A stretch of 64,000 nt of DNA from Gemmatimonadota bacterium. GTDB taxonomy: Bacteria; JBHIER01; G020348925. The translations under genes and the position numbers were made by a program. This document shows positions 6,930 to 44,828 of the stretch, one piece after another (positions within the stretch are counted from its first letter, which is position 1; each line of letters starts with the position of its first letter). The notes under the pieces were generated by a model, which worked only from the letters and a program-made list of their open reading frames with translations, did not search any database and was not told the origin of the DNA. The stretch covers positions 1,568,469 through 1,632,468 of the forward strand of contig CP070758.1 in NCBI GenBank assembly GCA_020348925.1, in the 5' to 3' direction.

Positions 6930-9344
6930 ATGAAGATCCCTTCGAAGGACACCATACAATTTTGCTGTGTCTTTCTTATTTCGATACTTATGATGGCCAA
7001 TCTCAGTCTAGGTACTACTGAGAACACCATACTGGCGAGATTGTTTATTCAGACGGAAGAACAATGGCAAAAGGTGCAGGCAATGAAATTGGAATCCGTC
7101 TCAGAAATAATATCGCCGGAGATTATGGATGTTCTCATAACGACCTCTCAAATGCACGAAATAGAATCAATGAGCATACGGATCGAAGTTCTTATGAGTG
7201 GACAGGAGTTCAACCGTGCTCTGAAAAAATCAAACGCAAACCTCGATCCCGAGTTTCACACGTATGAGGAGATGACTACAGAGCTTGATTCCTTGGCACA
7301 GGTGTATCCGGATATAGCGAAATGCGACAGCATCGGTCATTCCACCCAGAAGAGGAGAGCCATACGGGCTTTTAAGATTTCGGATAATGTCCAGGTCGAG
7401 GAGGACGAGCCGGCCGTCCTTTATGACGGCGTACACCACGCCTGCGAGGTGATGGGCCTGGAGATCTGTATGTACATGATCAATCATCTCTTGAAGAACT
7501 ACGGAACCGATCTTTTGGTCACCTATTGGGTGGACAATACGGAGATCTGGTTCGTGCCATTGATGAATCCCGACGGCCATTCGGCCGTCACCTCGGGGAT
7601 CAGTCTCAATTGGCGGAAAAACGGCCGCGACACAAATGAAAATTCCATCTTGTACGAATACGAATGCAACGACTGGTACACATGCAGGACGGAAGGTGTG
7701 GATATCAACCGGAACTACGATTTCAACTGGGCCACGGGTGGAAGCGGCGATCCCTGGGGGTACCTATACCGGGGTCCGGCACCCTTCTCGGAGTCTGAAA
7801 ATCAGGCGTTACGAAATCTCGCGGCAGAGCAGCGATTCATTTTCTCAATTTCGTATCACAGTTACGGAGAGATCGTCTTCTATCCCTGGAACCGTGGGGG
7901 TGGTACACCGGCACCGGACGATGCTCTCATATCATCGGTAGCCGCCCACATAGCTTCTCTTATTCCAAGAGAATACGGAGGAACCTATGATTACGGCAAG
8001 AACGGGGGGATGGTGGGATACAGTGCGAATTGGCTTTACGGAATATTGGGCACTATCGATTTCATGATCGAGGTAAACCCCTCCCCCATCTTTATTCCCT
8101 CCGGGAGTCGAATCGAAGAAATCGCTCAGCGCAATATGACCGGAGCCGTCTCTCTCCTGGATCGCATTCGAGGTCCGGGTCTCACCGGACACATTACGGA
8201 GGTCGAAACCGAAAGACCTCTTTCGGCCACGATCAAGATACTCGAAATATATGCTCCTGAAATACAGCCCCGAACCAGTGAGCCACAATACGGTCGATTC
8301 TACCGCATGCTTCTCCCCGGACAGTACACCGTAGAAGTATCCAGGGGTGGATACGTCAGCCAAGTTCACAATGTCACTGTAGCCAATAACGGGCTCACGA
8401 CGCTGGACGTGACCCTGTCACCCGACATCCACATCGCCATTTCAAACTTCACCATTGACGATGACAATGCAGGAAACAGCCACGGCAATAGCGACGGCGT
8501 GATCAATTATGGGGAACAGATAGAACTAACGATTGAACTTATCAATACAGGTACTCTTTCAGCTTCGGGCATGACAGGAATTCTCTCTTCCGATGATGAA
8601 CATGTGACCATCATCGACAGCCTTAGTGATTTTGGAGATATATCAGAAGGAGATGGGGTTGTTGCTGAGGACGCATTCGAGTTCGTGGTTTCGACCGAAA
8701 TACCGCATGGCCATGTTATAACTTTCCACCTATCCATCACAGACAATCTCGATAGGTCGTGGACTGATACCTGCGCCTTGCAGGCCACGGCACCTGAATT
8801 GGAATATTTCTCGTACACGATCAATGATCGTTCGGGCGACGGTGATGGCCTCACCGATCCTGGAGAGCATGTTGAACTGTTCGTTGCCCTCAGAAACTCA
8901 GGTGGTCAAGAGGCCGAAACTGTGTCGGCCGTGTTAAACTCCAACGATCTTTATGTGATTATTGAGACTCAGAGCACGGTCTATGGGAACATGCCTCCAG
9001 ACTCTTTAACAACTTCGGTCACACCATTTGAATTCAGTGTGGTCCCGGAATGTCTGGTACCATACAGCATACAATTTCAGCTCGAGATTGCTGGGGCCAG
9101 AAACTATGCTCGCTCCAGAACCTTTACCATTGCCGTGGGTGAAGTGGCCGCAGGGGATGTAAATCTTGATGGTTCAATTAATATCCTTGATGTTATTCTG
9201 ACAGTCAATGCAATCCTGCGATTTGTTGAATTGAATGCGTTACAGTTTTCCACTGCCGACCTAAACAATGACGGTGTTATCAATGTTTTAGACGTAGTTC
9301 AGATCGTAAATGTCATCTTAGGCTCGAGTCCTCAATTTGAATAG
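6930..9344 (+). CDS. Secreted M14 zinc carboxypeptidase (carboxypeptidase T-like) with regulatory-like domain, two GNxDG..xGE Ig-like modules and C-terminal dockerin
   Basis: Signal peptide; HHACE, NPDG, WRKN, GVDINRNY, SYHSYG, FMIE; duplicated GDVNLDGSINILDV / ADLNNDGVINVLDV; start uncertain (6897-6930). Confidence 0.88.
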   Translation: MKIPSKDTIQFCCVFLISILMMANLSLGTTENTILARLFIQTEEQWQKVQAMKLESVSEIISPEIMDVLITTSQMHEIESMSIRIEVLMSGQEFNRALKKSNANLDPEFHTYEEMTTELDSLAQVYPDIAKCDSIGHSTQKRRAIRAFKISDNVQVEEDEPAVLYDGVHHACEVMGLEICMYMINHLLKNYGTDLLVTYWVDNTEIWFVPLMNPDGHSAVTSGISLNWRKNGRDTNENSILYEYECNDWYTCRTEGVDINRNYDFNWATGGSGDPWGYLYRGPAPFSESENQALRNLAAEQRFIFSISYHSYGEIVFYPWNRGGGTPAPDDALISSVAAHIASLIPREYGGTYDYGKNGGMVGYSANWLYGILGTIDFMIEVNPSPIFIPSGSRIEEIAQRNMTGAVSLLDRIRGPGLTGHITEVETERPLSATIKILEIYAPEIQPRTSEPQYGRFYRMLLPGQYTVEVSRGGYVSQVHNVTVANNGLTTLDVTLSPDIHIAISNFTIDDDNAGNSHGNSDGVINYGEQIELTIELINTGTLSASGMTGILSSDDEHVTIIDSLSDFGDISEGDGVVAEDAFEFVVSTEIPHGHVITFHLSITDNLDRSWTDTCALQATAPELEYFSYTINDRSGDGDGLTDPGEHVELFVALRNSGGQEAETVSAVLNSNDLYVIIETQSTVYGNMPPDSLTTSVTPFEFSVVPECLVPYSIQFQLEIAGARNYARSRTFTIAVGEVAAGDVNLDGSINILDVILTVNAILRFVELNALQFSTADLNNDGVINVLDVVQIVNVILGSSPQFE

Positions 9345-9399
9345 TTATTAAGAGCTTAATGGGAATTGGAATGCTCAGAAGAAAACAAGGAGGTACATC

Positions 9400-9864: not shown

Positions 9865-9927
9865 GCGGGAGAGCATGGGAAAACGAGACGGCGCTTCCAG
9901 AAAACGCAACAAAAAAGCCCGTCTCCC

Positions 9928-10808: not shown

Positions 10809-13800
10809 TCACGGACTACACACACCAAGACCCAGGATGACACGAACGATTCCCACCACATCCAAAACGTTGATTCGATCATCACTATTACAGTCGGCTC
10901 TCCTGAGGCCATCTCCTCGCAAAGGCTTGGAACCTACAATGTGATTGATCGCAGCCATCACGTCCAGAACGTTCATTATGCCATCCCCGTTGACATCGCC
11001 TCTGGATATACTTGCAGTTTCAACGTGCCAATGGGTATCGGAATCGAAATCCGAAGGGCGATACGGATCGCTGTATATGCAACCCTGGTAATACAAACGC
11101 AGGGCATTATCAAGATTCTCGCGCAGTCCTTGCAGCCCTCGCCCGACACCCACAGCGTAGACGAACTTCAACGTGTCACCTGCGGGAAAATCAAACGGCC
11201 CGGTAGACTGAAGCCATCGATAATCGAAGACCGTAGCATTGAAATCAGGATGGCACGGGTTGACCATGTACCTCTTACCCTGCATGAAAACATGTCCCCC
11301 ATCCATGAACCCTAACTTCTCCGCATCGCTACCTGGATCGGCCTCCCAGTTCCACCAACTGTGACAATAGGGCATCATCAGACTATCGGAAAGAGCATCA
11401 TCGGTACCTGAGAAGTTATAATACGCCTCAGGGGCGTAAAGCCGATTCGGCGCGTAGATGAGCCGTCCGCCGATGTACCCTTCGCAGGGATAGGGTCTCT
11501 GATCCCGCTCCTGAAAATCGTTCTCAGGTGAACTCGGGTGATCGCCATCGTACATATAGGACATATTCCTCGGAACCGCAAACCCATATACAACTGTAGT
11601 ATCCATAACATCCGGATGCTTGAACGCGATCCGCTGCCCTCTCATCTCATCAATCAAGAGAGTATACTCGTCAGGAAACCCGTCCGGTTCGATGAGCGCT
11701 TCATTGTAACTTGGATTGTCGGGATCACCATAAGGTACACCCCACTCGTCGTAACCGGTATTCCCATCGCCGTCCCAGTCAAAAGGATCGACGACATCAC
11801 CTCTATCATAGGGTAAACCGGGATAGACTTGCGGTAACTCATCCGTCCTGGAATCCGAACCGTCCCATCCGTCATAATCGACCAGATCATCGATATGAGG
11901 ATCTGAAATGTCACCGTGACAGACATCGGCATCAAAAATCCAGGCGACAAAGAAATTTTCGTAATTCCTGATACTTGAATTGACGACAGAGATCTCAAGG
12001 GCCAAAAAATCATCGTACTCCGGATAGCTTTCCGGCCACATGAGCGCTTTCTGAAACACATTCAAGTTTAACGGGAAAACACCCAAGAGATTAGAACTAT
12101 CATTAAATGTGACACTCACCTCAAAATTTTCTATTCCAATCTCATAGTACTGTTCAGTTCCAATACCGCTGGGAGGATGAAATTCATAATTACCGTAATC
12201 GGCATGACTGACGCGTTCTTCGCCATCGACAATAGCTCCGGCCCAGAATCGCCCCTCCCAGTTGTAGTGATTTTCCGTCCCCCCAGGCCATTCGAAGTTA
12301 TGGTATGCAAAATCGGCGTTTCCGTACACACCGTGATCTGAGACTGCGGTCCACAACGTGGCAGTTTCTCCCAAGGTTCTGGGTGTTGCGAAGACTTCGT
12401 TGGAGTACTCACTCTCTCCCTCGGGATCCTCATAGACAGCCGTTACCACGTAGTAATACGTCTGGGTTGCTATAACACTGGCGTCCTCGTACCCTAAGGT
12501 ATTGGAGGAAGCGATCATCTCGTAAGGACCACCGGAGACATCGCCCCTGTAAACACGGTACTCCATAAGCCCTGTTTCTCGAAAGGTATTGCCTACACTG
12601 TCTGTGCGTTTTTCATAGAACAGCATTTTCCTTTTACCGATACTCCTTTTTAAAACTCCTTCGGTAAATGAACCTTCTGGATCTTTTTCTGATGAAAGAA
12701 ACGGAGGCACCCAGAACAGAGGGACTTTCTCAAGAGCCCGATCCTGTGCCGCAAGATTCCGTGGAGGAGGAAACACAGGATATTCATTGTGTACAAGGTA
12801 GCGGCTCTTGGACTGTGTGCCATCTTTGGCCCCCTTGTGTATGACTCCCAGAAACAGCGTCTCATACGCTTCGCCGAAATCGGAAACATCGATAGAGGTT
12901 TGATTCCGATCGTCCAATGTCAGAAATTCGAGGGGCAAATCGGGCTCCGACTCGAAGGGCATGAGATAAGGAGACCTTGTCTTTATTCCGATCAATCGGA
13001 AATTGTAGTCAAGATCTCCGTAGAAGTAAATGAAGGGATTATAGCAAGATAGAAAAGGATTTGTAAGGCACGGTGCAGGAGGTAGTACGATGATATAATC
13101 AGCAGACCACTGATGGCTTGAAAAAAAATACGGTGAAGTATCCAAAGTACCCCAGTATGTGAAGGTTTTTGCGTCGAGCACATATCCGGAGTCATAATAT
13201 TTAAATGAATATTTTCCTCCGTAAAACCAGTTCTCCGGTGCATCCAGAAACCAGGCCAACTGTTCATCGACAAACACGCTGTCAAAATCCACCTTAACGT
13301 AACCATTCGCTGCCAGAGCAGCGGTTACGACCTCAGTACCAGAATGTTCCGTATCGGCGGCCAAGGTCCGGATGACATCGATGCCGTAATGCTCGAAGAG
13401 ATACTGCATAAACATGACCGTTTTGACCTGATCCTGTATTTCAGGTTGTTCCCGACAATCATCGTTGGAGAGATGAGATTGGAGGTACCAGAGCAAAGGC
13501 TGTCTTGAGAAGATCCCCGGATTGGCCACGCCGTAACCGCAGAGAAACTGGGAGAGATATGTCAACCCCTCATGAAGCCAGCACTCCTCATCCGGATCAT
13601 TGCCATACAGAAGCAGATGGGTGAATTGTTGGGCCATACTCCAAAGCCCGTCTGTTCCAGGATCGAAGGGATTGCAGTCGATGTATATCATCTCGCGAGC
13701 GTTGCTGTGTGAGTTTTCGGCCCTGTTGAGCTGGTTGACCGGATCGAAATAACCTGGCATAGCGGCTGCTCCCATACCCTCCGTACAATCCAGTATGAGA

Positions 13801-14207
13801 ATATAGATTCGGGGATCCCCATCAACATCCGGCGGTAATCCGTACATATCGGTAAGTTCGTCGTAGACACCTCGCGTATCGCTTAATATTCCACTCGCTG
13901 TGTCATCGGCGGCCGGTGTCACTTCCTCAAATGCCTCCAGAATGGCAACCACGTCATTCGAGTCAATGTTTCCTTTGTTCCAGCTCGAATCCTGAACCCA
14001 GACATAACAATGATCCCCTATTGCCCTGAGGGTCATACGGGTCCTGTAATATTCCCTGAAAAAGTGAAAGTCATAGGCCCAGAAGCTGGCCGTATCGCCG
14101 ACTTCCCATGGCTGGGTCACTCCCGGTTCAACAAGAACTGCTATCATTATGATACTAACGGCCACTATAGTCCAGAGTTCTCCCCTTTCGCTATGAAAAA
14201 ACATCAC
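10809..14207 (-). CDS. Large secreted protein: degenerate M30/immune-inhibitor-like metallopeptidase domain, FN3, uncharacterised domain, C-terminal dockerin
   Basis: Signal peptide; PPDVDGDPRIYIL, GYFDPVNQ..SNAREMIYID, AQQFTH..EECWLHEGL; YRVYR...YYYVVTAVY..ESEYSNEV (FN3); GDVNGDGIMNVLDV / ADCNSDDRINVLDV. Confidence 0.8.
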   Translation of the reverse strand: MMFFHSERGELWTIVAVSIIMIAVLVEPGVTQPWEVGDTASFWAYDFHFFREYYRTRMTLRAIGDHCYVWVQDSSWNKGNIDSNDVVAILEAFEEVTPAADDTASGILSDTRGVYDELTDMYGLPPDVDGDPRIYILILDCTEGMGAAAMPGYFDPVNQLNRAENSHSNAREMIYIDCNPFDPGTDGLWSMAQQFTHLLLYGNDPDEECWLHEGLTYLSQFLCGYGVANPGIFSRQPLLWYLQSHLSNDDCREQPEIQDQVKTVMFMQYLFEHYGIDVIRTLAADTEHSGTEVVTAALAANGYVKVDFDSVFVDEQLAWFLDAPENWFYGGKYSFKYYDSGYVLDAKTFTYWGTLDTSPYFFSSHQWSADYIIVLPPAPCLTNPFLSCYNPFIYFYGDLDYNFRLIGIKTRSPYLMPFESEPDLPLEFLTLDDRNQTSIDVSDFGEAYETLFLGVIHKGAKDGTQSKSRYLVHNEYPVFPPPRNLAAQDRALEKVPLFWVPPFLSSEKDPEGSFTEGVLKRSIGKRKMLFYEKRTDSVGNTFRETGLMEYRVYRGDVSGGPYEMIASSNTLGYEDASVIATQTYYYVVTAVYEDPEGESEYSNEVFATPRTLGETATLWTAVSDHGVYGNADFAYHNFEWPGGTENHYNWEGRFWAGAIVDGEERVSHADYGNYEFHPPSGIGTEQYYEIGIENFEVSVTFNDSSNLLGVFPLNLNVFQKALMWPESYPEYDDFLALEISVVNSSIRNYENFFVAWIFDADVCHGDISDPHIDDLVDYDGWDGSDSRTDELPQVYPGLPYDRGDVVDPFDWDGDGNTGYDEWGVPYGDPDNPSYNEALIEPDGFPDEYTLLIDEMRGQRIAFKHPDVMDTTVVYGFAVPRNMSYMYDGDHPSSPENDFQERDQRPYPCEGYIGGRLIYAPNRLYAPEAYYNFSGTDDALSDSLMMPYCHSWWNWEADPGSDAEKLGFMDGGHVFMQGKRYMVNPCHPDFNATVFDYRWLQSTGPFDFPAGDTLKFVYAVGVGRGLQGLRENLDNALRLYYQGCIYSDPYRPSDFDSDTHWHVETASISRGDVNGDGIMNVLDVMAAINHIVGSKPLRGDGLRRADCNSDDRINVLDVVGIVRVILGLGVCSP

Positions 14208-14558: not shown

Positions 14559-16670
14559 TCAAGGACTACACTCCTCAATACCCAGAATCGCACGAACGAT
14601 TCCCACGACATCCAATACGGTGATCTGCCCGTCACTATTACAATCTGCCCGGATGAACATTTCGCCTTTTAGGAGTTGCAGACCAATGATATGATGTACT
14701 ACTTTTATCACATCCAAGGCATCGACCACTCCGTCACTGTTGACATCACCTTTAAAGGGAAGTTCGACCGGCTCATAAATACTAAAACCTTCATTCCCTT
14801 CAGCAATGTAAATATTTTCGTCTTTCATTTTTAGGCTATACGGAGTCCCTCTTGTTTGGAATTTTCCCACAAAAACGGGATTCGTTTTCTCAGTAACATC
14901 AAATATTTGCACTCCCTCTCTCTCGGACATATAGACTATACTGTCTTCCACAACTAAATCGAGATCATACGAGTCGCATCCAACCTCAAGGGTCATCTCA
15001 TAAATAATAAACGGATAAACTCGATTAGAAATATCAATAATCATAAGCCACGCAAGATCTCCAAATCCAACGCTGTGAGCTAAGTATGCAAAGTTGCCCT
15101 CAATTGCCAGGGAAATACCACCGCCTTCAATAGGTATCGGAAGATCTATTGTACCAAGCACAGTTGGTTGGTGGATATCAGTGACATCAATGATATTGAA
15201 TCCGTCTCCAAAGACTGCATAATACAAAATGTTTCCATCAGCAATAAGATTTCTTGCGAACCGATTTCTTATATTTGTCAAAAGGTATGGCTCCAATGGA
15301 TCGGAAATATCGACCACCCAAATCCCGCTGCTTGAAATACTACTTGAAAAATACGTCACGTAGGCCCTACTTCTGTTTATGGCAATCTCATCAGGACTTT
15401 CGTCTAATGACAAGCTACTTACTAGGAAGATTTCTTGAGGATCAGAAATATCGAAAATCAGCAATCCAATCTCATTATCCACAACGTAGGCATAATGATC
15501 CTTTATTTCAACATCGGAGAACGCACCCTGTGATTCAATGATGTCTGAGAGTTTCAGATTGGCGGGATCTGACATGTCCACAACATACAATCCCATTCTC
15601 TCGTTTGCAATAAAGGCAAAATTATCTTTAAGATCGAAATTCTTGGCCGAGCCATATGTTTCAATTTCCCCCAATTCAGTAATTGAAGAAGCAGTTGAAA
15701 CATCGATCACTTTAACGCCAAAACTTCCCTTTGCTAAAAAACAGGTATTGTCAAGCAACTCAATATCATTATACCAGCCAGAACCAAAATTGCCGATCAT
15801 TTCTGGACTCAAAGGATCGGAAGCATCAAGTATGACGAATCCATTTCTACAATAGGCCAGATATGCAACTGCATCGTTCGCTTCTATATCGTTTATGCAA
15901 TCATCAAAATCGAACTTACTCTTGTATGTTGGTCTTTCTTTATTCGAAACATCGATAATTTGAACACCTTCCAAATCAGCCCAGAGAAATGCAAGATCAC
16001 CCGATACTCTTATTCGGCTGCCTGAACCCTCAGTGTGCATGAAACTGCTGATTAGATTAAAATGGTCAAGATCGTAGATATGAAGGCTTTCAGTGTATCT
16101 TCTGTTATCTGCCACATACAGGTAATCTCCCTCCACGTCGAGGTCGTAAAAATATCCATTGCTGTGAGCAGGAATTTCGTACTCCAGAATCGGTGATATT
16201 GGATTGGAAATATCCAGTATTCCAATTCCGTCAAATCTTCTGGCAACATAGATACGGTCGCCTTCTATCTCAACGTCCGCTGCATCTCCTCCCACTTGAA
16301 CCGGATCGTATCGCAGAGGATGTGTTGGATCCGAATAGTCGACAGCGAATAACTCTCCCGTGATGTAATATGAGGCGTACAGGATACCATTCTTTACCTC
16401 AATGTCGTCCACCTCCATGTCCAATCCTGACAGAAACATCGGATTCGAAACGTCTGAAATGTCGTACACTCGGACACCACTACTGGTGAGAACATACATG
16501 AAATTATTATCAAGTTCGATATCTCTCGCTCCCCCAGTAGCAATATTGAAATCAAGATTTGACTTGAGAGTGTATAAACTATCACTGTTTTTTGCAGATA
16601 CAAAATTCAGCGGTAGGAACAAGAAAAATAGCCATATTCCGACTATTTCTTTAAATCCGTTATAAAACAT
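14559..16670 (-). CDS. Secreted LVIVD-repeat beta-propeller protein with C-terminal dockerin
   Basis: Many G(L/V)x(I/V)(I/V)D(V/I)S(D/N)P repeats; signal peptide after MFYNG (GAGGGG RBS); GDVNSDGVVDALDV / ADCNSDGQITVLDV. Confidence 0.88.
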   Translation of the reverse strand: MFYNGFKEIVGIWLFFLFLPLNFVSAKNSDSLYTLKSNLDFNIATGGARDIELDNNFMYVLTSSGVRVYDISDVSNPMFLSGLDMEVDDIEVKNGILYASYYITGELFAVDYSDPTHPLRYDPVQVGGDAADVEIEGDRIYVARRFDGIGILDISNPISPILEYEIPAHSNGYFYDLDVEGDYLYVADNRRYTESLHIYDLDHFNLISSFMHTEGSGSRIRVSGDLAFLWADLEGVQIIDVSNKERPTYKSKFDFDDCINDIEANDAVAYLAYCRNGFVILDASDPLSPEMIGNFGSGWYNDIELLDNTCFLAKGSFGVKVIDVSTASSITELGEIETYGSAKNFDLKDNFAFIANERMGLYVVDMSDPANLKLSDIIESQGAFSDVEIKDHYAYVVDNEIGLLIFDISDPQEIFLVSSLSLDESPDEIAINRSRAYVTYFSSSISSSGIWVVDISDPLEPYLLTNIRNRFARNLIADGNILYYAVFGDGFNIIDVTDIHQPTVLGTIDLPIPIEGGGISLAIEGNFAYLAHSVGFGDLAWLMIIDISNRVYPFIIYEMTLEVGCDSYDLDLVVEDSIVYMSEREGVQIFDVTEKTNPVFVGKFQTRGTPYSLKMKDENIYIAEGNEGFSIYEPVELPFKGDVNSDGVVDALDVIKVVHHIIGLQLLKGEMFIRADCNSDGQITVLDVVGIVRAILGIEECSP

Positions 16671-16871
16671 CAAACTCACCCCTCTCGAGTGGATTATCTG
16701 AGTAATACCATTCTCTTCGTCTCCGACCACTGTCCACTGCCTACTGTCAACCGATTAAAATAGATCCCTCTTGGAACTTCTATTTCTGAAATATCTCATC
16801 TATCTCGTGAAACACGATGATATCCAGTCCCACTCTGCTTATTTGCCCTAAAAGAATTATTTACTTTAACC

Positions 16872-18260
16872 TCAATCCGGCCGTGTGACAAAGGAGAACT
16901 CGTACGGTTCTTTTAAGGGAGTCCCGAAGTAATCCGTAACGGCGGCATCTATAGATATCGTGTATTTCGTCAAGGGTTGGAGTATTATAGGATAGTATCG
17001 GACCTGTTGATTGTAATCCTTCCACTCAAATCTACCGCCTACGTCCGGGCTGATCGAGAAGGCACCCGAGAAGGTGGAGACGACCACGTACGTATTGAAA
17101 TTGATATAGATCGTTGGCGTGCGCTCGATGAACACATCGCCGTTATCGGGAAACGTCCCCGTTATCACAAAGGGCTCGGTGGTAAAAGAGAATTGAAAAG
17201 GCTCTTCAAGAGAAACACCATCCAAGTCCTTGGCCGTGGCATCGATCGTAAGGACATAGAGAGTATCGGCCATCAACGGGCCACCGGTATATATCTTCAG
17301 CTTATTGTCCTCAGGCCAAAGATAGATGACGTCCGTCACCGGCGTCATTGTGATAGCGTTCTCCACAGAAACCTGGTCCATTCTCTTGGGAAATGTTACA
17401 TAAATACTTTCGTAATTCCTGAGACCCACATTCTCGGCACCGTCGCCCGGATCCGAAAGAATCGCCGTCTGAGTCTGAGTAGACTCAATGGTTCGAAACC
17501 TGTATTCCAGAGCAAAGAGGAGATGATTTCCCGCCGTATCATGTGCGGCTGTGGATAAGATGATCCGATATTCAGTATTTGGATCCACATACCTGGATTC
17601 CATTCTGTACTGGAGGCATCGAATATGAGTGAAGGTCGTGATATCAGCCGGTTCACTGCCAGGTATGTCTGGCCATGGTACCAAATTACCCCAGCCCTCA
17701 TCCCAGTAATAGTAATAATAGTATGGATTCCAAATACTCTGGCTCCAGTAGAAGGTTCCCTCCGTGGGTGGTTCCGTGGAGAAAGCTTCTTCAACACTTT
17801 CGCGATCCATGGCGTCTGTGAAGTTAATGATCACAGAAATTCCATAATACGAGGAAACCACAATTTCGGCGTTGTCGTCCGGATAATAGGAGTATATGAG
17901 ATCCGGCAGTTTCGAGAGACTTATCTCACCGACATAGGTGATGCTCTCGTCGAAAACCATAACATCCTCCTGATACGTCCCATAGCTTTCGGCCATAATG
18001 AGCATGTCGTAATTTCCTGCCGTGAGACTGTCGAATTCGAAGGCCCCGGTCTCCGGGTCGATGACGGTCGAATCAACAATGACCACCTGCTTCACGTAGA
18101 TCCTCGCCCCGCTTTCCTTCTGAACAACAACTCCGACAATTTTTCCACATGGTGAGCCGGGATTATTCTCATAGACAATCCGCTCCGTCTCTTTGGTACA
18201 ACTGACGACGAAGCACAACGCAACTGACAATACGATGGCACATCTTATGAAGGTGCGCAT
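16872..18260 (-). CDS. Lipoprotein with carboxypeptidase-regulatory-like domain and three bacterial Ig-like (Big_5/SbsA-type) domains
   Basis: AGGAGG RBS, lipobox VVSC; repeated PxDGAxNV..I.vxF..xMD..SVE.A...D..G..L..PyxFsFxT units. Confidence 0.8.
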   Translation of the reverse strand: MRTFIRCAIVLSVALCFVVSCTKETERIVYENNPGSPCGKIVGVVVQKESGARIYVKQVVIVDSTVIDPETGAFEFDSLTAGNYDMLIMAESYGTYQEDVMVFDESITYVGEISLSKLPDLIYSYYPDDNAEIVVSSYYGISVIINFTDAMDRESVEEAFSTEPPTEGTFYWSQSIWNPYYYYYYWDEGWGNLVPWPDIPGSEPADITTFTHIRCLQYRMESRYVDPNTEYRIILSTAAHDTAGNHLLFALEYRFRTIESTQTQTAILSDPGDGAENVGLRNYESIYVTFPKRMDQVSVENAITMTPVTDVIYLWPEDNKLKIYTGGPLMADTLYVLTIDATAKDLDGVSLEEPFQFSFTTEPFVITGTFPDNGDVFIERTPTIYINFNTYVVVSTFSGAFSISPDVGGRFEWKDYNQQVRYYPIILQPLTKYTISIDAAVTDYFGTPLKEPYEFSFVTRPD

Positions 18261-24032: not shown

Positions 24033-24098
24033 CTTCCCACCTCCTTTAAGAAAAATATGCTTACACTTTACTCTTCCTCTCTCCATGTTCTCATACTC

Positions 24099-26333
24099 TC
24101 ACTTCAAGAATAACATTCTCTTGGTCTGAAAATACTCTCCAGTTTGAAATCGATAGAAATAGATACCGGAGGGAACCTCTTGCTTTGTGCTATTTCGACC
24201 GTCCCAATAAAAAGTGTGGAATCCAACTTCCTTCGTCTCATTTACTAAAGTTGTAATGTGTTGTCCAAGCACATTGTAAACATCCAACCGTACATGGCTT
24301 GCATTTGGTAATGCGTATTCGATACGCGTTCCTGTATTAAATGGATTCGGATAATTTTGAGAGAGACTGTAATCAGTGGGAATATCCTCCACGATGAAGT
24401 CACCATGCTTGACGTATGCACCAACCAAATCATCCATGAAACCGCACGGGATAAGCTCACCACTGCCTTTAGCACTTTGATTCACTTGGAAGTCTACCTC
24501 AACAAGGGTCATAAAAGCACCATATGATATTGCCTCAATATGGAAACCTCCAATAATCAAGACGCCCGGCCTCACAATCCCTGCATCCAGTATTGTCCAA
24601 TCCTCAGTGGCAGATGTGGTGGAGATTTTCTCAAACTCCAACAGTTCTGCAGGATATAGTAATTGAAAGGCAAAGGCATCCAATCCTCGGGGATTCTCCA
24701 CCATAACCGGAATCCTGATAATGCTGCCCGGAGTTCCTCTCATGGATTCAATGAAAAGACGATCAACAAGCTTGCTTCTACTCTTCACAACCGTCTCCAA
24801 ACATTCACACTCCCCTGTCCAATCTCCAAGAATGGACCGCCAGAAAATACACAAGGCATCACCTGGAGTGATAAATCCATCACACGTGACCTCCGCAGAC
24901 TCCTCTGAGCATTCACACCCACATTCAGGTTGAAAAGAACCCAGAGCGAATCTCCAGTATGCACACAAAGCATCACTCATCGTGATAGCTCCATCACAAT
25001 TAACATCGCCTCGTTCACAGATACCGCTGGTGAACTTTCCACAGCAGGGCCAGGCCCAGTTCGCTAAATCATCAGTGAGACCTTGACAACACACTTGACT
25101 GGTATCCCGGGACTGGCACTGAACCACCTCAAAAGAGACACGAGCAATGGATCCTGTTGTTCCAGGAGAGATGGGTACTGTGTTAAACCCCCCGATGGTG
25201 ATCACACCAGGACCTGTCTCGTCTCCTGAAACTATAATCCAATTTGTCGTCAAATCACAGGCCTCAACTGTGTCAAAAGCAAACACGGTATTATCAAAAG
25301 TTACACGCAATCCAAAGGCATCGACAGGGTTTTGATTCTGATACATAGTGATATCAGTAGAAACCCTTTGCCCCGTGTGACCTGTGAAGTCTCTAACTTT
25401 GATGAGATCAGGTGGTTCACATGTTTCATGAAAGTTTAGAAGCCAGATTACCGAATTACAGAACAACTTCTTCAGCTTTGCGAGCCCCTCTGAATCTGAT
25501 ACAATTCCATTGCATGCTCCATAGACTCCAGCGATCTGCACAACGACCCTATTTTGTAATGGGCCCACGTATGTTAGAATAACAGGCTTGTTGGTCCACC
25601 TATTTATTGCAACAACGATTTCACCTTGATTTGTCGCCTGCGTCACGTCAATATCACGAGTATAGGAAAAGCTATTCACAAAACCATACGGACCACTCAT
25701 TATGGGATGATCTGGAACTGTAATATCAATAATATCTACTCCAAAGGAACCATTATTTGTTGTACTTACTAAGTGTGTGACATAAGAAGCTCCGATTGTA
25801 TATGCATCGGCACTCAACGCCATATCGTCCCCAATTAAGTAAAGAGGTTTGCCATGGTTCAATGCTTGTGTTAGAACATCAACGATATTCTGGCCGGTTC
25901 CATTCTTTTTATTGTACCAGTCCCATCCTCCATTATCGTAAATGATGACATCAAAACGTTCGATATCCGAATAGGCCAATGTTTCTTCCGGAGGATAAAA
26001 CGCCTCGGCTTCAATAGCCAGTTCGCTCAAGTATGTATTGATCTTCGTAACTTCGTCATCTGTACCTTGTGCATCACCCCTCGAAAATCCACAAATAATA
26101 GCTGCTTTTGGCAGACAGTCCCTCCATTCGGCTATAGACTCTCCCGATTGTTCAAATCTGTCAAGGATATTCACCGTCAGCTCGCTCAGTGTGCGCCGCG
26201 TAAGTGTATCGGATTCACTTTGACTGTGAAAATCTACAGGTTGAAGCATCTCCACCTGTCCAATCGCCACTGACCAAAACGCATAAAATACGAAAACGCT
26301 CGAAATCAGCAGGACGTTCATACCGAGTTTCAT
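24099..26333 (-). CDS. Secreted protein with cohesin, Cys-rich dockerin, second cohesin and T9SS-type tail
   Basis: Two PVDAFGLRVTFD / GLDAFAFQLLYP..G..IIGGF cohesin-like units; GDVNCDGAITMSDA / EVTCDGFITPGDA; SQNYPNPFN..PSGIYFYR. Confidence 0.8.
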   Translation of the reverse strand: MKLGMNVLLISSVFVFYAFWSVAIGQVEMLQPVDFHSQSESDTLTRRTLSELTVNILDRFEQSGESIAEWRDCLPKAAIICGFSRGDAQGTDDEVTKINTYLSELAIEAEAFYPPEETLAYSDIERFDVIIYDNGGWDWYNKKNGTGQNIVDVLTQALNHGKPLYLIGDDMALSADAYTIGASYVTHLVSTTNNGSFGVDIIDITVPDHPIMSGPYGFVNSFSYTRDIDVTQATNQGEIVVAINRWTNKPVILTYVGPLQNRVVVQIAGVYGACNGIVSDSEGLAKLKKLFCNSVIWLLNFHETCEPPDLIKVRDFTGHTGQRVSTDITMYQNQNPVDAFGLRVTFDNTVFAFDTVEACDLTTNWIIVSGDETGPGVITIGGFNTVPISPGTTGSIARVSFEVVQCQSRDTSQVCCQGLTDDLANWAWPCCGKFTSGICERGDVNCDGAITMSDALCAYWRFALGSFQPECGCECSEESAEVTCDGFITPGDALCIFWRSILGDWTGECECLETVVKSRSKLVDRLFIESMRGTPGSIIRIPVMVENPRGLDAFAFQLLYPAELLEFEKISTTSATEDWTILDAGIVRPGVLIIGGFHIEAISYGAFMTLVEVDFQVNQSAKGSGELIPCGFMDDLVGAYVKHGDFIVEDIPTDYSLSQNYPNPFNTGTRIEYALPNASHVRLDVYNVLGQHITTLVNETKEVGFHTFYWDGRNSTKQEVPSGIYFYRFQTGEYFQTKRMLFLK

Positions 26334-26516: not shown

Positions 26517-26545
26517 ATAATACTAATCTAAGATGTGGATGTCAA
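26517..26545 (-). promoter_or_regulatory. Sigma70-type promoter upstream of 26333 gene
   Basis: Minus strand TTGACA-17 bp-TATTAT. Confidence 0.6.
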
Positions 26546-26559: not shown

Positions 26560-29220
26560 TCACGGTGGGCAGTGTTTGAGGCCAAGAATAAGGTTTACGA
26601 TTCCGAGAACATCCGTAACATTGATTACACCATCAATATTACAGTCAGCAGCCCGAATTTCGTCCTCGGTTGGGTTGGGGTAACTGCCAATGGCAATTCT
26701 GATGGTAAGAACGACATCAAGAGCATTTACTGCACCATCAGAGTTTATATCCCCTTTGGGGCCTGAAAGAATGGCGACCGTTCCATCTTTGCAGAGAGGA
26801 GAGATTTCTCTTCCCAGGGGATCACCCAATACTGTATTGGTGATATTCCAAGGATAATAACCCTCCAAACAACTGCCGGTATCAAACAGGATCTCCACGA
26901 CAGAACCTTCACCTACGTCAATGCATCCACTAATTGATGACTGGATGATCTGTATTCCCCCCTCTATGACGCTGTGAAAAAACATGGAAGTAACCCTTGC
27001 TCGAGCCGTTTGCTCAACAGATGTAATTTGAAAGCAGGTGGTGTCATACAATATATCGGCTTGCAGATGGCAGATATCTGAGCAATTCTGAAGTTCGAGA
27101 TAGATTCTGTTGTCTTTGCTATTTTGTAAAACGACTTGATCATCCATCATCAATACAAAATTACTGTCAGCTCGTGTATATGTGACAATCGAATTCCCCT
27201 TAGTGGCTGCATATATTGTATTATGATTTTCTGGATCAATCTTCAAATCGTAAACCACGTTGTCCACCATAAAATCGGTCCTTATCGAGGTCCAACTGTC
27301 ACCACCATCAGTACTCATGTAAATTCCTGTAAACTCAGACCCATTGCCACTATCAGAGCAATAGAGGACATTACTATCTTCAGGATCTATTATCAAAACA
27401 TTCATTCTCCTGCGACCCCAGTTGTTTATATTCTCAAGACCTTGATCCTTAAACAACCAACTCTCGCCTCCATCCGTGCTCTTGAAAACACCCCCGGCTG
27501 GGCCGTTATTGGAGTTGTTTACGTAAAGAACATTCGGATCGTGAGAATCCATAGTTATATGATAATTGTATCCAAACAATCCTGTCATTTTTTCCTCCCA
27601 ATTCAGTCCACTATCAATTGACTTGTAGATTCCACGATCCCCAGCAACATACAAGACATTTGAGTCTTCAGGATGAAAGATGAGATCGTTCACTTTTTGA
27701 TCCGTAAAATCATTCGGTGGACGGTCCCAGGTCTGCCCGCCATCACTACTCCGGAAAATTCCCTCCGACGTTCCTACATAAACCATATCGGGATTATGGG
27801 GTGAAATGACAATAGTATATATCCTACCAGGATCCTCCAGACCATCACCACTGTTCATCCAACTTTGTCCCCCATCCTCAGAGAGAAACAATCCCTCATG
27901 CGAGCTACCTAAGTAAATCCGGTGAGAATCACGCGGATCAAAAGCCATGGATTTCGGATAAAAATACTTAGGAAGGCCCTCTTGAAGGCGAATCCACGTA
28001 ATCCCTCTGTCAATAGTCTTTAACAAACCTACCGAAGCACTGGCAAAGATAATTGAAGGATTCGACGGATCTATAGCAATATGCCTCACCAGGTTTGCCT
28101 TCATTGTGCCATCGGTAATGTCATCCCAGTTTTCTCCACCATTCGTTGTCTTGAATATCCCGCCACACCAGGTGCCAAGATAGAGGATTTCAGGATCAAC
28201 AGGTTTGATTGCTATCTCCTGTAAAACATGAGTTGTGAGACCTTCCTCTATCGATGTCCAGCTTCCACCACCATCGGTGCTCTTGTACATACTTCCAAAG
28301 AGTATATTTGAGAGGGGTTCGTTCGCTGCATATAAGATATTTGGGTTCGTAGGATTGAGAACTATTGACCGTGTAAAAATGGCGTTCATATTATTATTCG
28401 TATTTTGCCAACTCTCCCCTCCATCCGTACTTTTGTACACACTGTTATATCCACCACCTGAAGCGGCCGTGGCGATGTACAGTTTTTCAGGATTATGGGG
28501 ATCTATGGCAATGTCGAGGATAGAAATAACCGATTGACCGGATATGCCTTCATTCATTTTTCTCCATGAATCTCCCCCATCAGTGCTTTTCAAAACTCCA
28601 CAAAGCACAGTCCACTCATCCGAATAGTCCGTTCCCGAATAAATGATGTTAGAATTCACTGGATCAACGGCTATATCCCTGACGTAAGCTTTTTGAACAT
28701 CTGTTGGTTCCCAATGTCCCCCTCCGTCAATACTCCGGTACAACCCAAAGAGATCGCGCCCGGCATACAGTCTTTCGGGATCCTTTGGATCCACGGCGAA
28801 ACTCTGCACCATGTAATCACCTATTGCTCCCCGAGGTAAGCCCCAATTTGTGATCACCCAACTTTCCCCTCCATCCGTGCTCTTGTGTACACCTCCTCTA
28901 CTTGTACCTGCATAGAGAACATCAGTATCAAGAGGATTTATGACAATACACTTTACACCTCCGTATTTTATATTTATCTTTTGCCAATGAATGCCTCCAT
29001 CAGTAGTCTTGTAGATTCCCTCTTGATTATAGGCCGATCCTACATAGACAATATCCGGATTTTGTGGATCAATAGCAATAGCGCTTGACCAAAGACCCGG
29101 AGGCCCAATGCTCGTCCATTCATTGATTCCTGCTATGGAGAGAGATAATGATAAGACAAGACAACCCAGAGTAATTGACACCAAGTAGGAGCTTTTTCTC
29201 AATGTTCTGCACCCTGACAT
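26560..29220 (-). CDS. Secreted BNR/Asp-box (VPS10-like) double beta-propeller with cohesin-like domain and C-terminal dockerin
   Basis: Repeated IDPxNPxxLYAGT..GVYKSTDGGxSW; LELQNCSDICHLQADILYD..GEGSVVEILFD; GDINSDGAVNALDV / ADCNIDGVINVTDV. Confidence 0.85.
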   Translation of the reverse strand: MSGCRTLRKSSYLVSITLGCLVLSLSLSIAGINEWTSIGPPGLWSSAIAIDPQNPDIVYVGSAYNQEGIYKTTDGGIHWQKINIKYGGVKCIVINPLDTDVLYAGTSRGGVHKSTDGGESWVITNWGLPRGAIGDYMVQSFAVDPKDPERLYAGRDLFGLYRSIDGGGHWEPTDVQKAYVRDIAVDPVNSNIIYSGTDYSDEWTVLCGVLKSTDGGDSWRKMNEGISGQSVISILDIAIDPHNPEKLYIATAASGGGYNSVYKSTDGGESWQNTNNNMNAIFTRSIVLNPTNPNILYAANEPLSNILFGSMYKSTDGGGSWTSIEEGLTTHVLQEIAIKPVDPEILYLGTWCGGIFKTTNGGENWDDITDGTMKANLVRHIAIDPSNPSIIFASASVGLLKTIDRGITWIRLQEGLPKYFYPKSMAFDPRDSHRIYLGSSHEGLFLSEDGGQSWMNSGDGLEDPGRIYTIVISPHNPDMVYVGTSEGIFRSSDGGQTWDRPPNDFTDQKVNDLIFHPEDSNVLYVAGDRGIYKSIDSGLNWEEKMTGLFGYNYHITMDSHDPNVLYVNNSNNGPAGGVFKSTDGGESWLFKDQGLENINNWGRRRMNVLIIDPEDSNVLYCSDSGNGSEFTGIYMSTDGGDSWTSIRTDFMVDNVVYDLKIDPENHNTIYAATKGNSIVTYTRADSNFVLMMDDQVVLQNSKDNRIYLELQNCSDICHLQADILYDTTCFQITSVEQTARARVTSMFFHSVIEGGIQIIQSSISGCIDVGEGSVVEILFDTGSCLEGYYPWNITNTVLGDPLGREISPLCKDGTVAILSGPKGDINSDGAVNALDVVLTIRIAIGSYPNPTEDEIRAADCNIDGVINVTDVLGIVNLILGLKHCPP

Positions 29221-29351: not shown

Positions 29352-29354
29352 ACA

Positions 29355-29396: not shown

Positions 29397-32300
29397 TCAT
29401 CTCAGCATCACCATCTTCTTCGTCTGAGAATAATCTCCAGCTTGAAGCCGATAGAAATAAACGCCGCTTGGGACAACTTCACCCTGACCGTTCTCGCCAT
29501 CCCAGAAGACAGAGTAATACCCCGTCTCCTGAGACTCATCCAACAACATACGTACCTCCTGGCCCATTACGTTGTAAATCCTCAAGGTGGTGTGGACGGG
29601 GTATCCGTCATCTACTATCTGATATTTGATATCTGTGTTCACATTGAAGGGATTGGGGTAATTCTGGAACAGGGCGAACTCGTTTGGCAATACATGAGTT
29701 CGATCACCTTCTGACGTCTCCGTAATGCCAACGACTCTGACAAGTCCGTCTTGAAATGAACCCTGAGGCTGCCCCTCATTGAAGAGCAAGTGTTCAACTG
29801 AAATGATACTTGTATCATCAGAAGTCGCGGTGGGGTTAACCTGGCACTGCAACCATAATAGTGGCGCATAGCTCTCCGAACACTGATCAATAGGCTCAGC
29901 GGAAACGACTGAAACGTGAACACTTCCACCCTCAGCATCGATCCTATATACAAAAAGCCCGAATGGCTCATCGACTGGATTGGCCAGTGTTACCTCTGTA
30001 ATGGTGAGTACAGTAGGATCGTAAGCAAACTCCAAATCTATGGAGTAAATATCAAGAAATTTGAGACTGGTGTCGTTTAAAACATCAACGAGTACAGGAA
30101 ACTCCAGGGTTCTACCTGGACTGCCTACCGTATCAGGCAGAACAAGAGCTACCTCAGGTGGGCCTATAGTATCTCTGAGCCCCGGCCAATTCCTGTTGAC
30201 ATCACCCCAGATAAAAGCTTGAAAATCCTGATCGGTTTGATAGGCAGAAAAATTGGAATAACAAAGAGTATTAGGGACAAACGTCCATTGCCCAATGGAG
30301 TGAAAAACCTCATCCCCTACCATATATCTTGCGATCAAGTGGGCATCGAAGAACGTAACATTTCCACTGCCACTCACATCGGCCATCAGTGAATCAATGT
30401 AAAAATCGCGGTCACCACCACCATATTCACATACTATTAGACGTAAAATAAGAGATGCATCAAAGGAGGTGATGACATGTTGAGGAATTTCCATATTTTG
30501 GGGTGTTATACAATAGTCCTTACCCTCAACCAGGGAAGGAAATGCGTAGAAACCCGTTTCATCCGTATACATTGTTTCGCTCAAAAAGCCACTGAGATGC
30601 AACTCAACATTTTCTAACTGAACATCGGTGTCAGTATACGTAACAGTTCCGGAGATAAAATTTTGGGACCCCACATAGAAATACCTGCTCTCAATTCCAG
30701 TCGGAAGTTGATTGCCCCTGATGTCAGCCACTTTCACGTCCATCAATGTGAGGGGATATGCACCGGTTGGAGCTTGACTATCAACATCAAAAAAGAAATC
30801 GCCCACCGAGCCCGTACCGCCGACAATAGACTGGCCAATACCGGTGATTACCAGCTTTACCTGGTCCAGCGCATAATCCAAGTTGACACCAATGATGTCC
30901 ATGTGCCCGGATCTGGATGTGCTTGAAAAATCGATTGCTGTCAATACAACCGGATAGAAATTCAGGATCAGCTGCAATCCTCCTACCTCGACCTCATTTT
31001 CTAAGAAGATAGAAACTCTCTCTCTTGATGACCCCGGGTCGCCGACCACATCGACAACGCGAACCCAAACATCAGGTAATACTCCCTCAGCTTGTACAGA
31101 CACAATCGCTGCAATCGGAACATCGGGAGCGAGAGAATATAAGACAATATTTCCCCAGGTGGGGCCTACATCTGCGGGAGAACACGTAACAAATACCTCT
31201 TCACTGCTATCCGGCTGAAGAGTGAAAGAAGTTTTATCCACAGTGAAATCGCCACTACTCGAGGTTATTTCCTCGACAGTGTATTCCTCTGTCCCCACAT
31301 TTGTGACAGTGAACACCTTTCGAGCCGATCCACCCACTGCTACCTCCCCAAAATCGTAGGTCTGCGGATACACTTCAAAAGCCTGATATGGAACAGCCCC
31401 AGAGCCATGCAGGGAAATCAACACCTCCCTCTCATCAGGGTCATTACTGATGACAGTCAACGTCCCCGAATAAAGACCTTCGATCATTGGGGTGAAAGTA
31501 ACATGTACATCTTCGCTACAATCCGGAGGAACTCTGAAAGAGGCTCTATCGACTCCAAAAGCGGTGGTGTCCGTAAGAAGAGCAAAAACGATCAGATCCT
31601 CGATACCAACATTGGAGATAGTCAATATCCAATCCTTTGTACTCCCGAAGATAGCTTGCCTGAAATCGTGAATCGTGTCGGATACAGCAATATCCGGAGC
31701 GGAGACGATGGTAATCATTCCATCCGTCGTCTCAGCCCAGGGATCTCCCTCATTGAACATGAAATATTCGAAGTTGAGCGGCCATGATTGTCCTATCTGG
31801 GCATCTGGTAAGGCCTGAAATACAATGTAAGCCAACATACCGTTCTCCTCCGGAGGGGAATTTCCCGCCCAGGCCATTGTGACCTCCCCCCCGTCAACGC
31901 GATATGTGAGTACACCCAAATGTTCGTAAATCGTCTCTTCATTTGATACCTCGGTAATTGACACATTGCTGTCATCGTATGTGATAGCAAACTGAGCGGA
32001 AAAAACGTTCAGGCCTTCCACGTTGCCAACGTTGATACAGACCCTAAAGTTCTCTCCGGGGAGTACGAATTTATCCGTAAGCCAAACGGCCACTGTATCC
32101 GTGGTGACGACTGGTTGTCGCCAGTTCCCGCTAACGTCGCCAATGATGATCGCTTTCCAATCCTCGGTCACATGGCTCTGATCCATATTGGACCAGAATA
32201 GGCTATACATATGCCACTGAGTTGCGTCTTCACCGTGGTACTCGAATATCCAATCCCCGATGCAGGACTCAACTTCATAACCGACAACATGACGAAGCAG

Positions 32301-32762
32301 AACGGCTGCATCGTAAGCAGTAATAGCGTAGTTGAAGGGCTCGGTACTATTGCAGGTTACATCGGCGGCGATGGAGTCATAGCGGTCAAAAGTTGTGAGA
32401 TTGCATAACAGCTGGAGAATAAAAGCCGCATCATAGGCGGTTACAGATACATCATCCTTTTCTCCACTTGGGGTGAGGCTATAGTCAAGTCCAGCCTGTA
32501 ATCCTGCGAATTGATAATAACCGTCAGCATCGGTAAAGGTGGTGTCGGAAGCTCCATCCGACAGAATCAACACGGTGCTGTCCACCGGCACATCGCTTTG
32601 AGCATACTTTACAGTGCCTGAAATCGACACCGTGGAGTCCTGGGCCGAAACAGTATCTCCGAAGGCACCCAAAAATGAGAAAATACACAACGTGATGATA
32701 CTGACGGCGATGATATATGGGCTGAAACTCCAGCCTCTGCGAATACAATAAGGGATTCTCAT
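29397..32762 (-). CDS. Scaffoldin-like secreted protein: three cohesin-like domains, two Ig/dockerin-like modules, two ASH/choice-of-anchor-D-like domains, T9SS-type tail
   Basis: Signal peptide; ISGTV.Y...TD..G.Y.F + TAYDAA..AADV..ITAYDAA (twice); cohesin-like FSAQFAITYD, GGLQLILNF, YSIDLEFAYDP..FNEG; DFGEV..FTVTNVG; FQNYPNPFN..PSGVYFYRL; no catalytic motif seen. Confidence 0.8.
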   Translation of the reverse strand: MRIPYCIRRGWSFSPYIIAVSIITLCIFSFLGAFGDTVSAQDSTVSISGTVKYAQSDVPVDSTVLILSDGASDTTFTDADGYYQFAGLQAGLDYSLTPSGEKDDVSVTAYDAAFILQLLCNLTTFDRYDSIAADVTCNSTEPFNYAITAYDAAVLLRHVVGYEVESCIGDWIFEYHGEDATQWHMYSLFWSNMDQSHVTEDWKAIIIGDVSGNWRQPVVTTDTVAVWLTDKFVLPGENFRVCINVGNVEGLNVFSAQFAITYDDSNVSITEVSNEETIYEHLGVLTYRVDGGEVTMAWAGNSPPEENGMLAYIVFQALPDAQIGQSWPLNFEYFMFNEGDPWAETTDGMITIVSAPDIAVSDTIHDFRQAIFGSTKDWILTISNVGIEDLIVFALLTDTTAFGVDRASFRVPPDCSEDVHVTFTPMIEGLYSGTLTVISNDPDEREVLISLHGSGAVPYQAFEVYPQTYDFGEVAVGGSARKVFTVTNVGTEEYTVEEITSSSGDFTVDKTSFTLQPDSSEEVFVTCSPADVGPTWGNIVLYSLAPDVPIAAIVSVQAEGVLPDVWVRVVDVVGDPGSSRERVSIFLENEVEVGGLQLILNFYPVVLTAIDFSSTSRSGHMDIIGVNLDYALDQVKLVITGIGQSIVGGTGSVGDFFFDVDSQAPTGAYPLTLMDVKVADIRGNQLPTGIESRYFYVGSQNFISGTVTYTDTDVQLENVELHLSGFLSETMYTDETGFYAFPSLVEGKDYCITPQNMEIPQHVITSFDASLILRLIVCEYGGGDRDFYIDSLMADVSGSGNVTFFDAHLIARYMVGDEVFHSIGQWTFVPNTLCYSNFSAYQTDQDFQAFIWGDVNRNWPGLRDTIGPPEVALVLPDTVGSPGRTLEFPVLVDVLNDTSLKFLDIYSIDLEFAYDPTVLTITEVTLANPVDEPFGLFVYRIDAEGGSVHVSVVSAEPIDQCSESYAPLLWLQCQVNPTATSDDTSIISVEHLLFNEGQPQGSFQDGLVRVVGITETSEGDRTHVLPNEFALFQNYPNPFNVNTDIKYQIVDDGYPVHTTLRIYNVMGQEVRMLLDESQETGYYSVFWDGENGQGEVVPSGVYFYRLQAGDYSQTKKMVMLR

Positions 32763-44827: not shown

Positions 44828-44828
44828 A

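Follow-up and report, generated by a model that had tools for sequence, protein, structure and literature searches.

The closest described counterpart of the system treated here, a cohesin-dockerin network that appears to be coupled to a type IX secretion system (T9SS) in a Gemmatimonadota bacterium, is the cellulosome-like complex proposed, from genomes only, for Candidatus Stygibacter of the Cloacimonadota (PMC8542988). Our starting point was a stretch of 64,000 nucleotides of contig CP070758.1 (assembly GCA_020348925.1, positions 1,568,469 to 1,632,468, forward strand), the whole of which is called the window, and in which positions 6,930 to 32,762 encode secreted proteins ending either in a dockerin or in a T9SS-type tail. 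According to the accessible parts of the published accounts, to which all literature comparisons given here are limited, Ca. Stygibacter resembles our organism in being a diderm, in possessing a tandem-cohesin scaffoldin whose C-terminal domain (CTD) is cited to the T9SS literature, in not being cellulolytic, and in encoding signal-peptide enzymes with C-terminal dockerins that include GH57, S8, and C25 members. In contrast, one scaffoldin of 3,755 amino acids with carbohydrate-binding modules (CBMs) and four named enzyme types are described there, whereas the Gemmatimonadota genome contains about 100 cohesin and about 300 dockerin open reading frames (ORFs), adaptors, tail swapping, and spacer cassettes. 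How enzymes lacking a tail get across the outer membrane is not addressed in the corresponding section of that paper.

The planctosome of freshwater Planctomycetes (Nemodlikiaceae; PMC6461901) is likewise hypothetical: a cohesin-dockerin complex thought out for breaking down polypeptides, in which an adaptor and an M14 carboxypeptidase take part. It is a small system without a T9SS tail, and its proposed anchor is a lamin-tail domain protein carrying a single cohesin. (Pseudo)Bacteroides cellulosolvens (PMC5590126), whose system has been called the most intricate, shares with our organism many scaffoldins, adaptors, more than 200 dockerin ORFs, and the same module folds; 78 cohesins on 31 scaffoldins are reported there versus about 172 on 102 ORFs here, as counted by different detection methods. 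However, that bacterium is clostridial and cellulolytic and binding has been tested in vitro, whereas here no GH9 or GH48 was found and the one GH5 match has no module. The mucinolysome of Limousia (PMC12997984) is also cellulosome-like and directed at a substrate other than cellulose, but it is specialised for mucin and belongs to gut anaerobes, and its account, in the accessible part, shows no link to a T9SS. The T9SS of Bacteroidota (PMC10994853) employs SprA, PorV-family carriers, PorU, and type A tails as found here; its GldL/M motor and GldK/N ring were not recognised in our genome, in searches that scored no positive control, and eight PorV-family genes are present. A genomic survey (PMC11557425) does not mention the T9SS in its accessible part. 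The general idea is already in print, unproven there as here. What is new is the scale, the exchange of tails, and the spacer that obligatorily keeps dockerin and tail apart; counts for other uncultured lineages could already be published in supplements or subscription journals, most of which lay outside our search. Cellulosome-type assembly is thereby extended to a two-membrane bacterium with mixed proteolytic cargo, and its scale exceeds that of the most elaborate system in the accessible literature. Two questions arise, namely by what route dockerin proteins without a tail pass the outer membrane, and in what way SprA, PorV, and PorU work without recognisable PorKLMN.

The reading that we favour, and to which we give slightly better than an even chance, is that cargo ending in a bare dockerin comes to rest on tailed scaffoldins at the cell surface by a T9SS-type route, trans binding and surface display being the parts that would have to hold. 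Profiles seeded from the modules of the window and iterated over the 21,155 ORFs of the 5.04 Mb genome, which is 96.3% complete, retrieve 295 ORFs with a dockerin, 259 with a tail, and 102 with a cohesin, the last containing about 174 modules. Under stricter criteria, 289 ORFs have a type-A dockerin, or 307 if a second dockerin type is included; these are counts of ORFs, and among the 457 ORFs with modules, 54 touch an assembly gap. Pfam confirms all 119 dockerin candidates scored (of 527) and 55 of the 74 cohesin candidates scored (of 141). For comparison, a relative from the same family and another genus (G001) and 39 genomes sharing only the domain were searched. The two genomes of the family yield at least 116-119 dockerin and at least 55-56 cohesin matches to Pfam, the 39 others at most 20 and 5, respectively. 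G001 has 116 dockerin matches among 119 scored and 99 cohesin matches to an alignment built from our genome, and both SprA and PorU are present. The system is genome-wide and shared by two genera; it is no peculiarity of this locus, and the window holds one cluster of it. One dockerin match (G000 C1:4080164-4080334) contains an internal TGA and is a decayed copy, and in a minority of proteins (L043, L055, L095, L102) the dockerin is N-terminal, preceding Fib_succ_major, amidohydrolase, or beta-helix domains.

Genome-wide, 160 ORFs end in a bare dockerin, 153 carry a tail without a type-A dockerin, and 106 carry both. The same cargo families switch among a bare dockerin, a tail alone, and the arrangement dockerin-spacer-tail, in line with the opposition of tail and dockerin-only cargo first suspected in the window. 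Among the multi-member families with a bare-dockerin member, 19 of 28 also hold tailed members, and 84 of the 160 bare-dockerin ORFs have a tailed paralogue with an identity of up to 69%. A quick tree of 34 rows requires at least seven tail changes; the family it depicts is held together by common domains and contains more than one catalytic type. That bare dockerins are frameshift or read-through artefacts is ruled out by the near-absence of downstream remnants (a hairpin remnant beyond the stop in 1 of 158 cases and a weak tail-like match in 2) and by the sharp stop position, as 72 of 102 cysteine-bearing bare dockerins terminate no more than three residues past the closing cysteine, the point at which the hairpin linker starts in the others. 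By a crude heuristic, hydrophobic N-termini occur in 121 of 133 ORFs versus 843 of 1841 background ORFs.

Where a type-A dockerin and a tail occur in one ORF (n = 99), they are separated in 98 cases by a spacer, either a 42-residue segment (66) or a cohesin (32). According to a structure model, the 42-residue spacer consists of two helices (residues 77-89 and 92-106); it is found in 71 ORFs and always lies between dockerin and tail, except in four truncated cases. When 8000 candidates were scored with the cassette, the full-length matches among the 120 listed all lay either in this genome or on short contigs labelled at most "bacterium"; the hairpin seems to be lineage-specific. No paper on it was found in a search mostly outside subscription journals and with supplements unread. 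Covariation among 110 dockerin-hairpin-tail sequences gives no inter-domain signal above relatedness, and two models of the unit reach predicted template modelling scores of 0.56 and 0.67, from which the side on which the spacer packs, dockerin or tail, is not readable. Of the 33 cohesins located between dockerin and tail, 32 belong to one clade (support 0.96). The second dockerin type, type B, is represented by 24 copies in 20 ORFs (two of them in the protein at 29397-32804 of the window), none of which is terminal and 13 of which are followed by a detectable cohesin.

A position table of 232 dockerins of the genome displays a duplicated calcium loop-helix motif with Asp/Asn at positions 1, 3, 5, 9, and 12, calcium position 12 being Asp in 100%. 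Calcium ligands and positions 10, 11, and 18, which we take from cellulosome work to be the binding face, are conserved in both repeats and alike across the bare, hairpin, and cohesin classes. In 210 parsed dockerins, which are not independent copies, both members of a cysteine pair are present in 155, neither in 45, and a single one in 10, and this near-perfect co-occurrence suggests a disulfide that would close the module. The model of a dockerin from another gene of the genome superposes on 2ccl_B with a Z score of 11.7 and a root mean square deviation (rmsd) of 0.8 over 62 residues; the fold search with this dockerin-hairpin-tail model covered dockerin and tail only.

Of 172 cohesins, 127 have no dockerin ahead of them; 92 of these belong to tailed proteins and 35 to ORFs without a detected tail. 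Immediately before a dockerin lie 33 cohesins. The clearest non-catalytic scaffoldin (C1:4337232-4340957; PF00963, 132 bits) comprises six cohesins, two Ig domains, and a tail, and is followed, within one gap-free run (C1:4334158-4340957), by two 3-cohesin proteins that end in a bare dockerin. G001 encodes a 4-cohesin protein with a tail, a 4-cohesin protein with a dockerin, and an ORF with at least eight cohesins that is cut by the contig end. Subunits with both modules, as noted in the sequence-only reading, are present as cohesin-dockerin adaptors, and dedicated multi-cohesin tailed scaffoldins exist, albeit elsewhere than in the window, whose own example at 29397-32804 is weak. Nor are the cohesin-like domains generic Ig folds, since Pfam recognises them in both window proteins and a modelled module of the pre-tail clade adopts the cohesin fold (6kge_A; Z 16.5, rmsd 1.9 over 128 residues), with cohesins filling ranks 1 to 48. 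No CBM3 was found in the cohesin proteins scanned with Pfam, which are a minority of the 102 cohesin ORFs.

The genes of an export route were recognised in part. SprA (TIGR04189, 725.5 bits), PorU (NF033707, 737.5 bits), and NF033709 (264.4 bits) all exceed their cut-offs, while the PorV equivalog NF033710 remains below it (190.8 versus 250 bits). PorU keeps its His and Cys motifs when aligned with 6za2, and a gene of the type cohesin-dockerin-cohesin-tail lies directly before porU-porV. Thus the part of the expected T9SS made up of SprA, PorU, and PorV-family proteins was found, but PorK/L/M/N were not recognised, in searches that scored no positive control. GldN and GldM have no match in any of 41 genomes, of which 10 have SprA over the cut-off, again with no positive control scoring; outside Bacteroidota, SprA may often occur without a motor that can be recognised. 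Among the sampled genomes, full-length SprA over the cut-off with GldN and GldM unmatched was observed in eight unrelated ones (G003, G005, G012, G016, G017, G020, G029, and G036). Directly behind porU-porV, an M6-like tailed protein is encoded (L028:13217-16372, corresponding to G000 C1:3292216-3295374), which reaches 528 of 600 bits with NF052323 (inactivated metalloprotease). The genome contains a single secretin, in a pilMNOPQ-like gene order as read by eye from translations, and none of the type II secretion system (T2SS) type was recognised, so that no separate T2SS route is apparent. Signal peptides were judged by eye together with the hydrophobicity heuristic.

Among 124 representatives of the 126 dockerin cargo families, with families called at E 1e-8, 76 are bare-dockerin representatives, which include 12 peptidases (C25, M28, M14, M1, C39, C1, S8, and M64) and 4 glycoside hydrolases (GH13, GH31, GH57, and GH99), while 22 of the 76 have no Pfam family at this threshold. 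The remainder comprises nucleases, a peptidyl-arginine deiminase, an esterase, members of the beta-lactamase family, and many propeller, Ig, and lectin-like domains. No dockerin-bearing cellulase (GH48, GH9, or GH5) occurs among the 124 representatives; GH9 was not found in a search with a scored positive control, GH48 was not found in a search without a scoring control, and the single GH5 match of the genome has no module but contains a gap. The system appears to be non-cellulolytic, and cellulosome-like in its working without being a cellulosome, because dockerin cellulases are missing. An apparent fusion of an inner-membrane M56 protein with a dockerin was rejected as an artefact of an N gap.

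In the window, the following features were annotated.

6897-9344, forward strand: M14 zinc carboxypeptidase with CarboxypepD_reg and Ig-like domains and a bare C-terminal dockerin at 9150-9323 (PF00246 197 bits, PF00404 34.1 bits); cargo.
10809-14207, reverse strand: metallopeptidase-like domain (12783-14135), probably inactive, a domain without known family (11028-12362), and a bare dockerin (10818-11003; PF00404 32.8 bits).
14559-16730, reverse strand: LVIVD beta-propeller (PF08309 166 bits) with a bare dockerin at 14568-14753 (PF00404 35.8 bits); cargo.
16872-18356, reverse strand: Big_5 Ig-repeat protein (PF13205 105 bits) with a lipoprotein-like N-terminus and no dockerin, cohesin, or tail; outside the module lists and a neighbour only, with membership in the system unsupported.
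18954-24086, reverse strand: FG-GAP/ASPIC-UnbV double propeller (PF13517, PF07593) with a T9SS type A tail at 18957-19220 (TIGR04183 36.7 bits) and no cohesin or dockerin.
24099-26333, reverse strand: N-terminal domain without family, cohesin (25014-25412), divergent dockerin-like segment (24807-25013), cohesin (24384-24776), and tail (24102-24380); PF00963 30.7 bits, TIGR04183 37.3 bits.
26517-26545, reverse strand: candidate sigma-70-like promoter upstream of 26333 with an 11/12 match; a lead only, as the total of promoter matches is at shuffle level (35 versus 33.4).
26560-29220, reverse strand: BNR/sortilin-like propeller (PF15902), cohesin (26767-27165, by the genome-trained profile), and bare dockerin (26569-26757; PF00404 35.6 bits).
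29397-32804, reverse strand: non-catalytic tailed protein with a type-B dockerin (32109-32462), cohesin (31701-32102), two choice-of-anchor-D Ig domains (NF012200), free-type cohesin (30660-31073), type-B dockerin (30171-30488), cohesin (29715-30152), and tail (29400-29687); PF00963 70.5 bits, TIGR04183 34.0 bits.

An ORF call over the window recovers all seven proteins of the sequence-only reading at their given places; the ATGs at 6930, 16670, and 32762 are in-frame and lie inside the longer ORFs 6897-9344, 14559-16730, and 29397-32804. Its division into four dockerin-ended and three T9SS-tailed proteins is borne out at all seven C-termini by Pfam Dockerin_1 (PF00404, cut-off 22.9 bits) and TIGR04183 (cut-off 23 bits), as is the presence of multiple cohesins by Pfam Cohesin (PF00963, cut-off 24.1 bits), the module numbers of three in 29397-32804 and two in 24099-26333 coming from the genome-trained profile. 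None of the seven has a glycoside hydrolase catalytic family at the Pfam cut-off, as had been noted before, yet the four such families named above do occur among the genomic dockerin cargo. The region is free of gaps, of which the scaffold as a whole has 205 (100 N each), and a listing of RNA holders for it came up empty. Its genes do not make up a single operon, as the M14 gene is on the opposite strand, and their density is unexceptional: when the genome is divided into 194 bins of the same length, 12 contain at least seven such genes, the mean being 2.3. The M14 protein displays zinc-site-like motifs at residues 178, 240, 319, and 388, which we take to form its zinc site.

In the protein at 10809-14207, QQFTH (13617-13631, residue 193) stands in place of HExxH. 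The same motif is present in its first paralogue, the tailed ORF C1:2209771-2212419, to which residues 25-475 are 58% identical; residues 616-1060 are 63% identical to a second tailed ORF, C1:2213682-2216210, and these two ORFs flank a PorV-family gene. The window protein is a fusion of two domains, each of which is T9SS-tailed elsewhere in the genome and which here end in a dockerin instead. Of its description as a pseudo-peptidase, the altered motif stands, but no peptidase family supports it: the cargo part has no Pfam or NCBIfam family, Atlas matches are all below 0.8, and the peptidase label depends on the HExxH motif. The family of the LVIVD propeller consists of six bare-dockerin members, one with hairpin and tail, and one tailed member. 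Both cohesins of 24099-26333 belong to a small separate clade of 7, and the dockerin-like segment of this protein scores 16.7 bits. The cohesin of the BNR protein, missed by Pfam, falls into the 64-member clade of dedicated scaffoldins, and this cargo protein could also chain. The middle cohesin of 29397-32804 is in the same clade, whereas the other two lie directly behind the internal type-B dockerins (127 and 134 bits with the type-B profile). These two of three cohesins may be occupied in cis, which makes the protein a weak example of a scaffoldin. A complex prediction for the free-type cohesin of this protein with the LVIVD dockerin scores 0.19 against a mark of 0.32.

How bare-dockerin cargo might reach the surface can be pictured in five steps. 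Proteins would enter the periplasm by Sec, as their N-termini suggest. Tailed proteins would leave via SprA/PorV, with PorU processing or anchoring them, if the genes found function as in Bacteroidota. One common calcium-type dockerin would bind the free cohesins that tailed scaffoldins and cohesin-dockerin adaptors carry, in agreement with the modelled folds. A bare C-terminal dockerin would then be an alternative address, such that cargo whose tail was lost would nevertheless arrive in the surface coat, most simply if it docked in the periplasm and crossed together with its scaffoldin. In proteins with a tail of their own, the hairpin or adjacent cohesin might mask or space the dockerin until after export, which is the weakest step. 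The outcome would be a coat that combines peptidases with some alpha-glycan hydrolases, nucleases or phosphatases, and binding propellers, and that digests and grips particulate organic matter. Hitchhiking through SprA would be the simplest route for 160 tail-less proteins, because the T9SS transports folded proteins (PMC9251779) and grips only the tail, passenger domains being loosely placed (PMC10994853). If so, folded proteins could be sent through the T9SS by means of a small dockerin tag, a prospect that bears on the secretion mechanism and on Gram-negative surface display. Combining periplasmic docking of bare dockerins, hitchhiking through SprA, and dockerins that are capped in cis by the hairpin or a dedicated cohesin and freed by tail processing outside into a two-tier export code, on a T9SS without known motor, is a tentative and rather unlikely extension; were it true, some 160 proteins would be exported although they bear no export tag themselves, and no cohesin-dockerin system described so far would be larger than this coat.

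Several observations weigh against surface delivery on tailed scaffoldins. The 106 ORFs with both elements refute the strict two-class rule, by which terminal dockerin and CTD were to be mutually exclusive, and therefore the dockerin is not merely a substitute for the tail. Bare dockerins (160) outnumber the free cohesins on tailed proteins (92), and 45 of 172 cohesins lie immediately behind a dockerin and possibly form closed cis units. The folded cohesin comes from the pre-tail clade, from the gene before porU, so that the models represent genes other than the modules of the window. GldN, GldM, and GldL have no match and GldK only a weak one (95 versus 350 bits) in this gapped, 96.3% complete genome, searched without a scoring positive control, and in Flavobacterium the motor is needed for the release of substrates from SprA (PMC10994853). 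In a literature search mostly outside subscription journals, no precedent was found for co-export of a tail-less partner through the T9SS, by way of cohesin-dockerin pairs or otherwise. Finally, the part of the window with type-B dockerin, cohesin, and tail (29400-30660) is similar to Atlas clusters in which phages make up most of the recorded members, the others being Bacteroidota.

The alternative that survives best, although we hold it to be unlikely, is that loss of the tail keeps an enzyme periplasmic, where it acts on imported oligomers, while its dockerin either pairs with tail-less cohesin proteins or has no partner and only tailed proteins form the surface network. The lack of a recognised T2SS-type secretin fits this, as do the 35 free cohesins on ORFs without detected tail, some of which are cut by gaps, however, and the M14, M1, M28, and GH31 cargo, types that are exo-acting. 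Yet bare-dockerin cargo shares families with tailed cargo (C25, S8, nucleases, lectin-like and adhesin-like proteins), and 3-cohesin adaptors ending in a bare dockerin are encoded right behind the tailed 6-cohesin scaffoldin.

A clearly less probable explanation regards dockerin plus hairpin or cohesin as a calcium- and disulfide-stabilised C-terminal unit for folding or spacing, and bare dockerins as tolerated remains of tail loss that recruit nothing. The hairpin (66) or cohesin (32) that immediately follows the dockerin in 98 of 99 cases, the single clade of 32 of 33 dockerin-to-tail cohesins, the lack of terminal type-B dockerins (0 of 24), and the cysteine pairing (155 both, 45 neither, 10 single) agree with such a role. 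However, tandem proteins of 3 to 8 cohesins with zero or one dockerin are left unexplained, and bare dockerins retain the binding-face residues of the other classes and end at a sharp boundary. Of about the same low probability is a surface mesh or biofilm matrix polymerised from a promiscuous dockerin and cohesin-dockerin chains, with adhesion or protection as its main role and enzymes as decoration: module-bearing ORFs making up 21% of genome length, the 33 cohesins directly before a dockerin, a single dockerin consensus across classes, and cargo rich in propeller, Ig, LRR, and lectin-like domains with 22 of 76 lacking a Pfam family speak for it, but 12 peptidases and 4 glycoside hydrolases among the 76, several cohesin clades (of 64, 42, 37, 9, and 7 members) suggestive of more than one specificity, and architectures explained without the CBM typical of adhesion scaffolds speak against it.

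Beyond the cohesin-dockerin genes, the window contains tandem paralogous genes for GT-C (PMT-like) membrane glycosyltransferases (33212-47886 and 50167-51816); GT2, radical SAM/SPASM, and flippase genes belong to the same cluster. Its adjacency to the cohesin-dockerin locus is uncertain, since an N gap (32849-32948) lies in between. The GT-C paralogue at 35079-36683 is split by an in-frame TAA (35823-35825), either a nonsense change or an assembly error, and in a radical SAM/SPASM gene at 48700-49952 the frame continues past the stop that ends an ORF of 179 amino acids.

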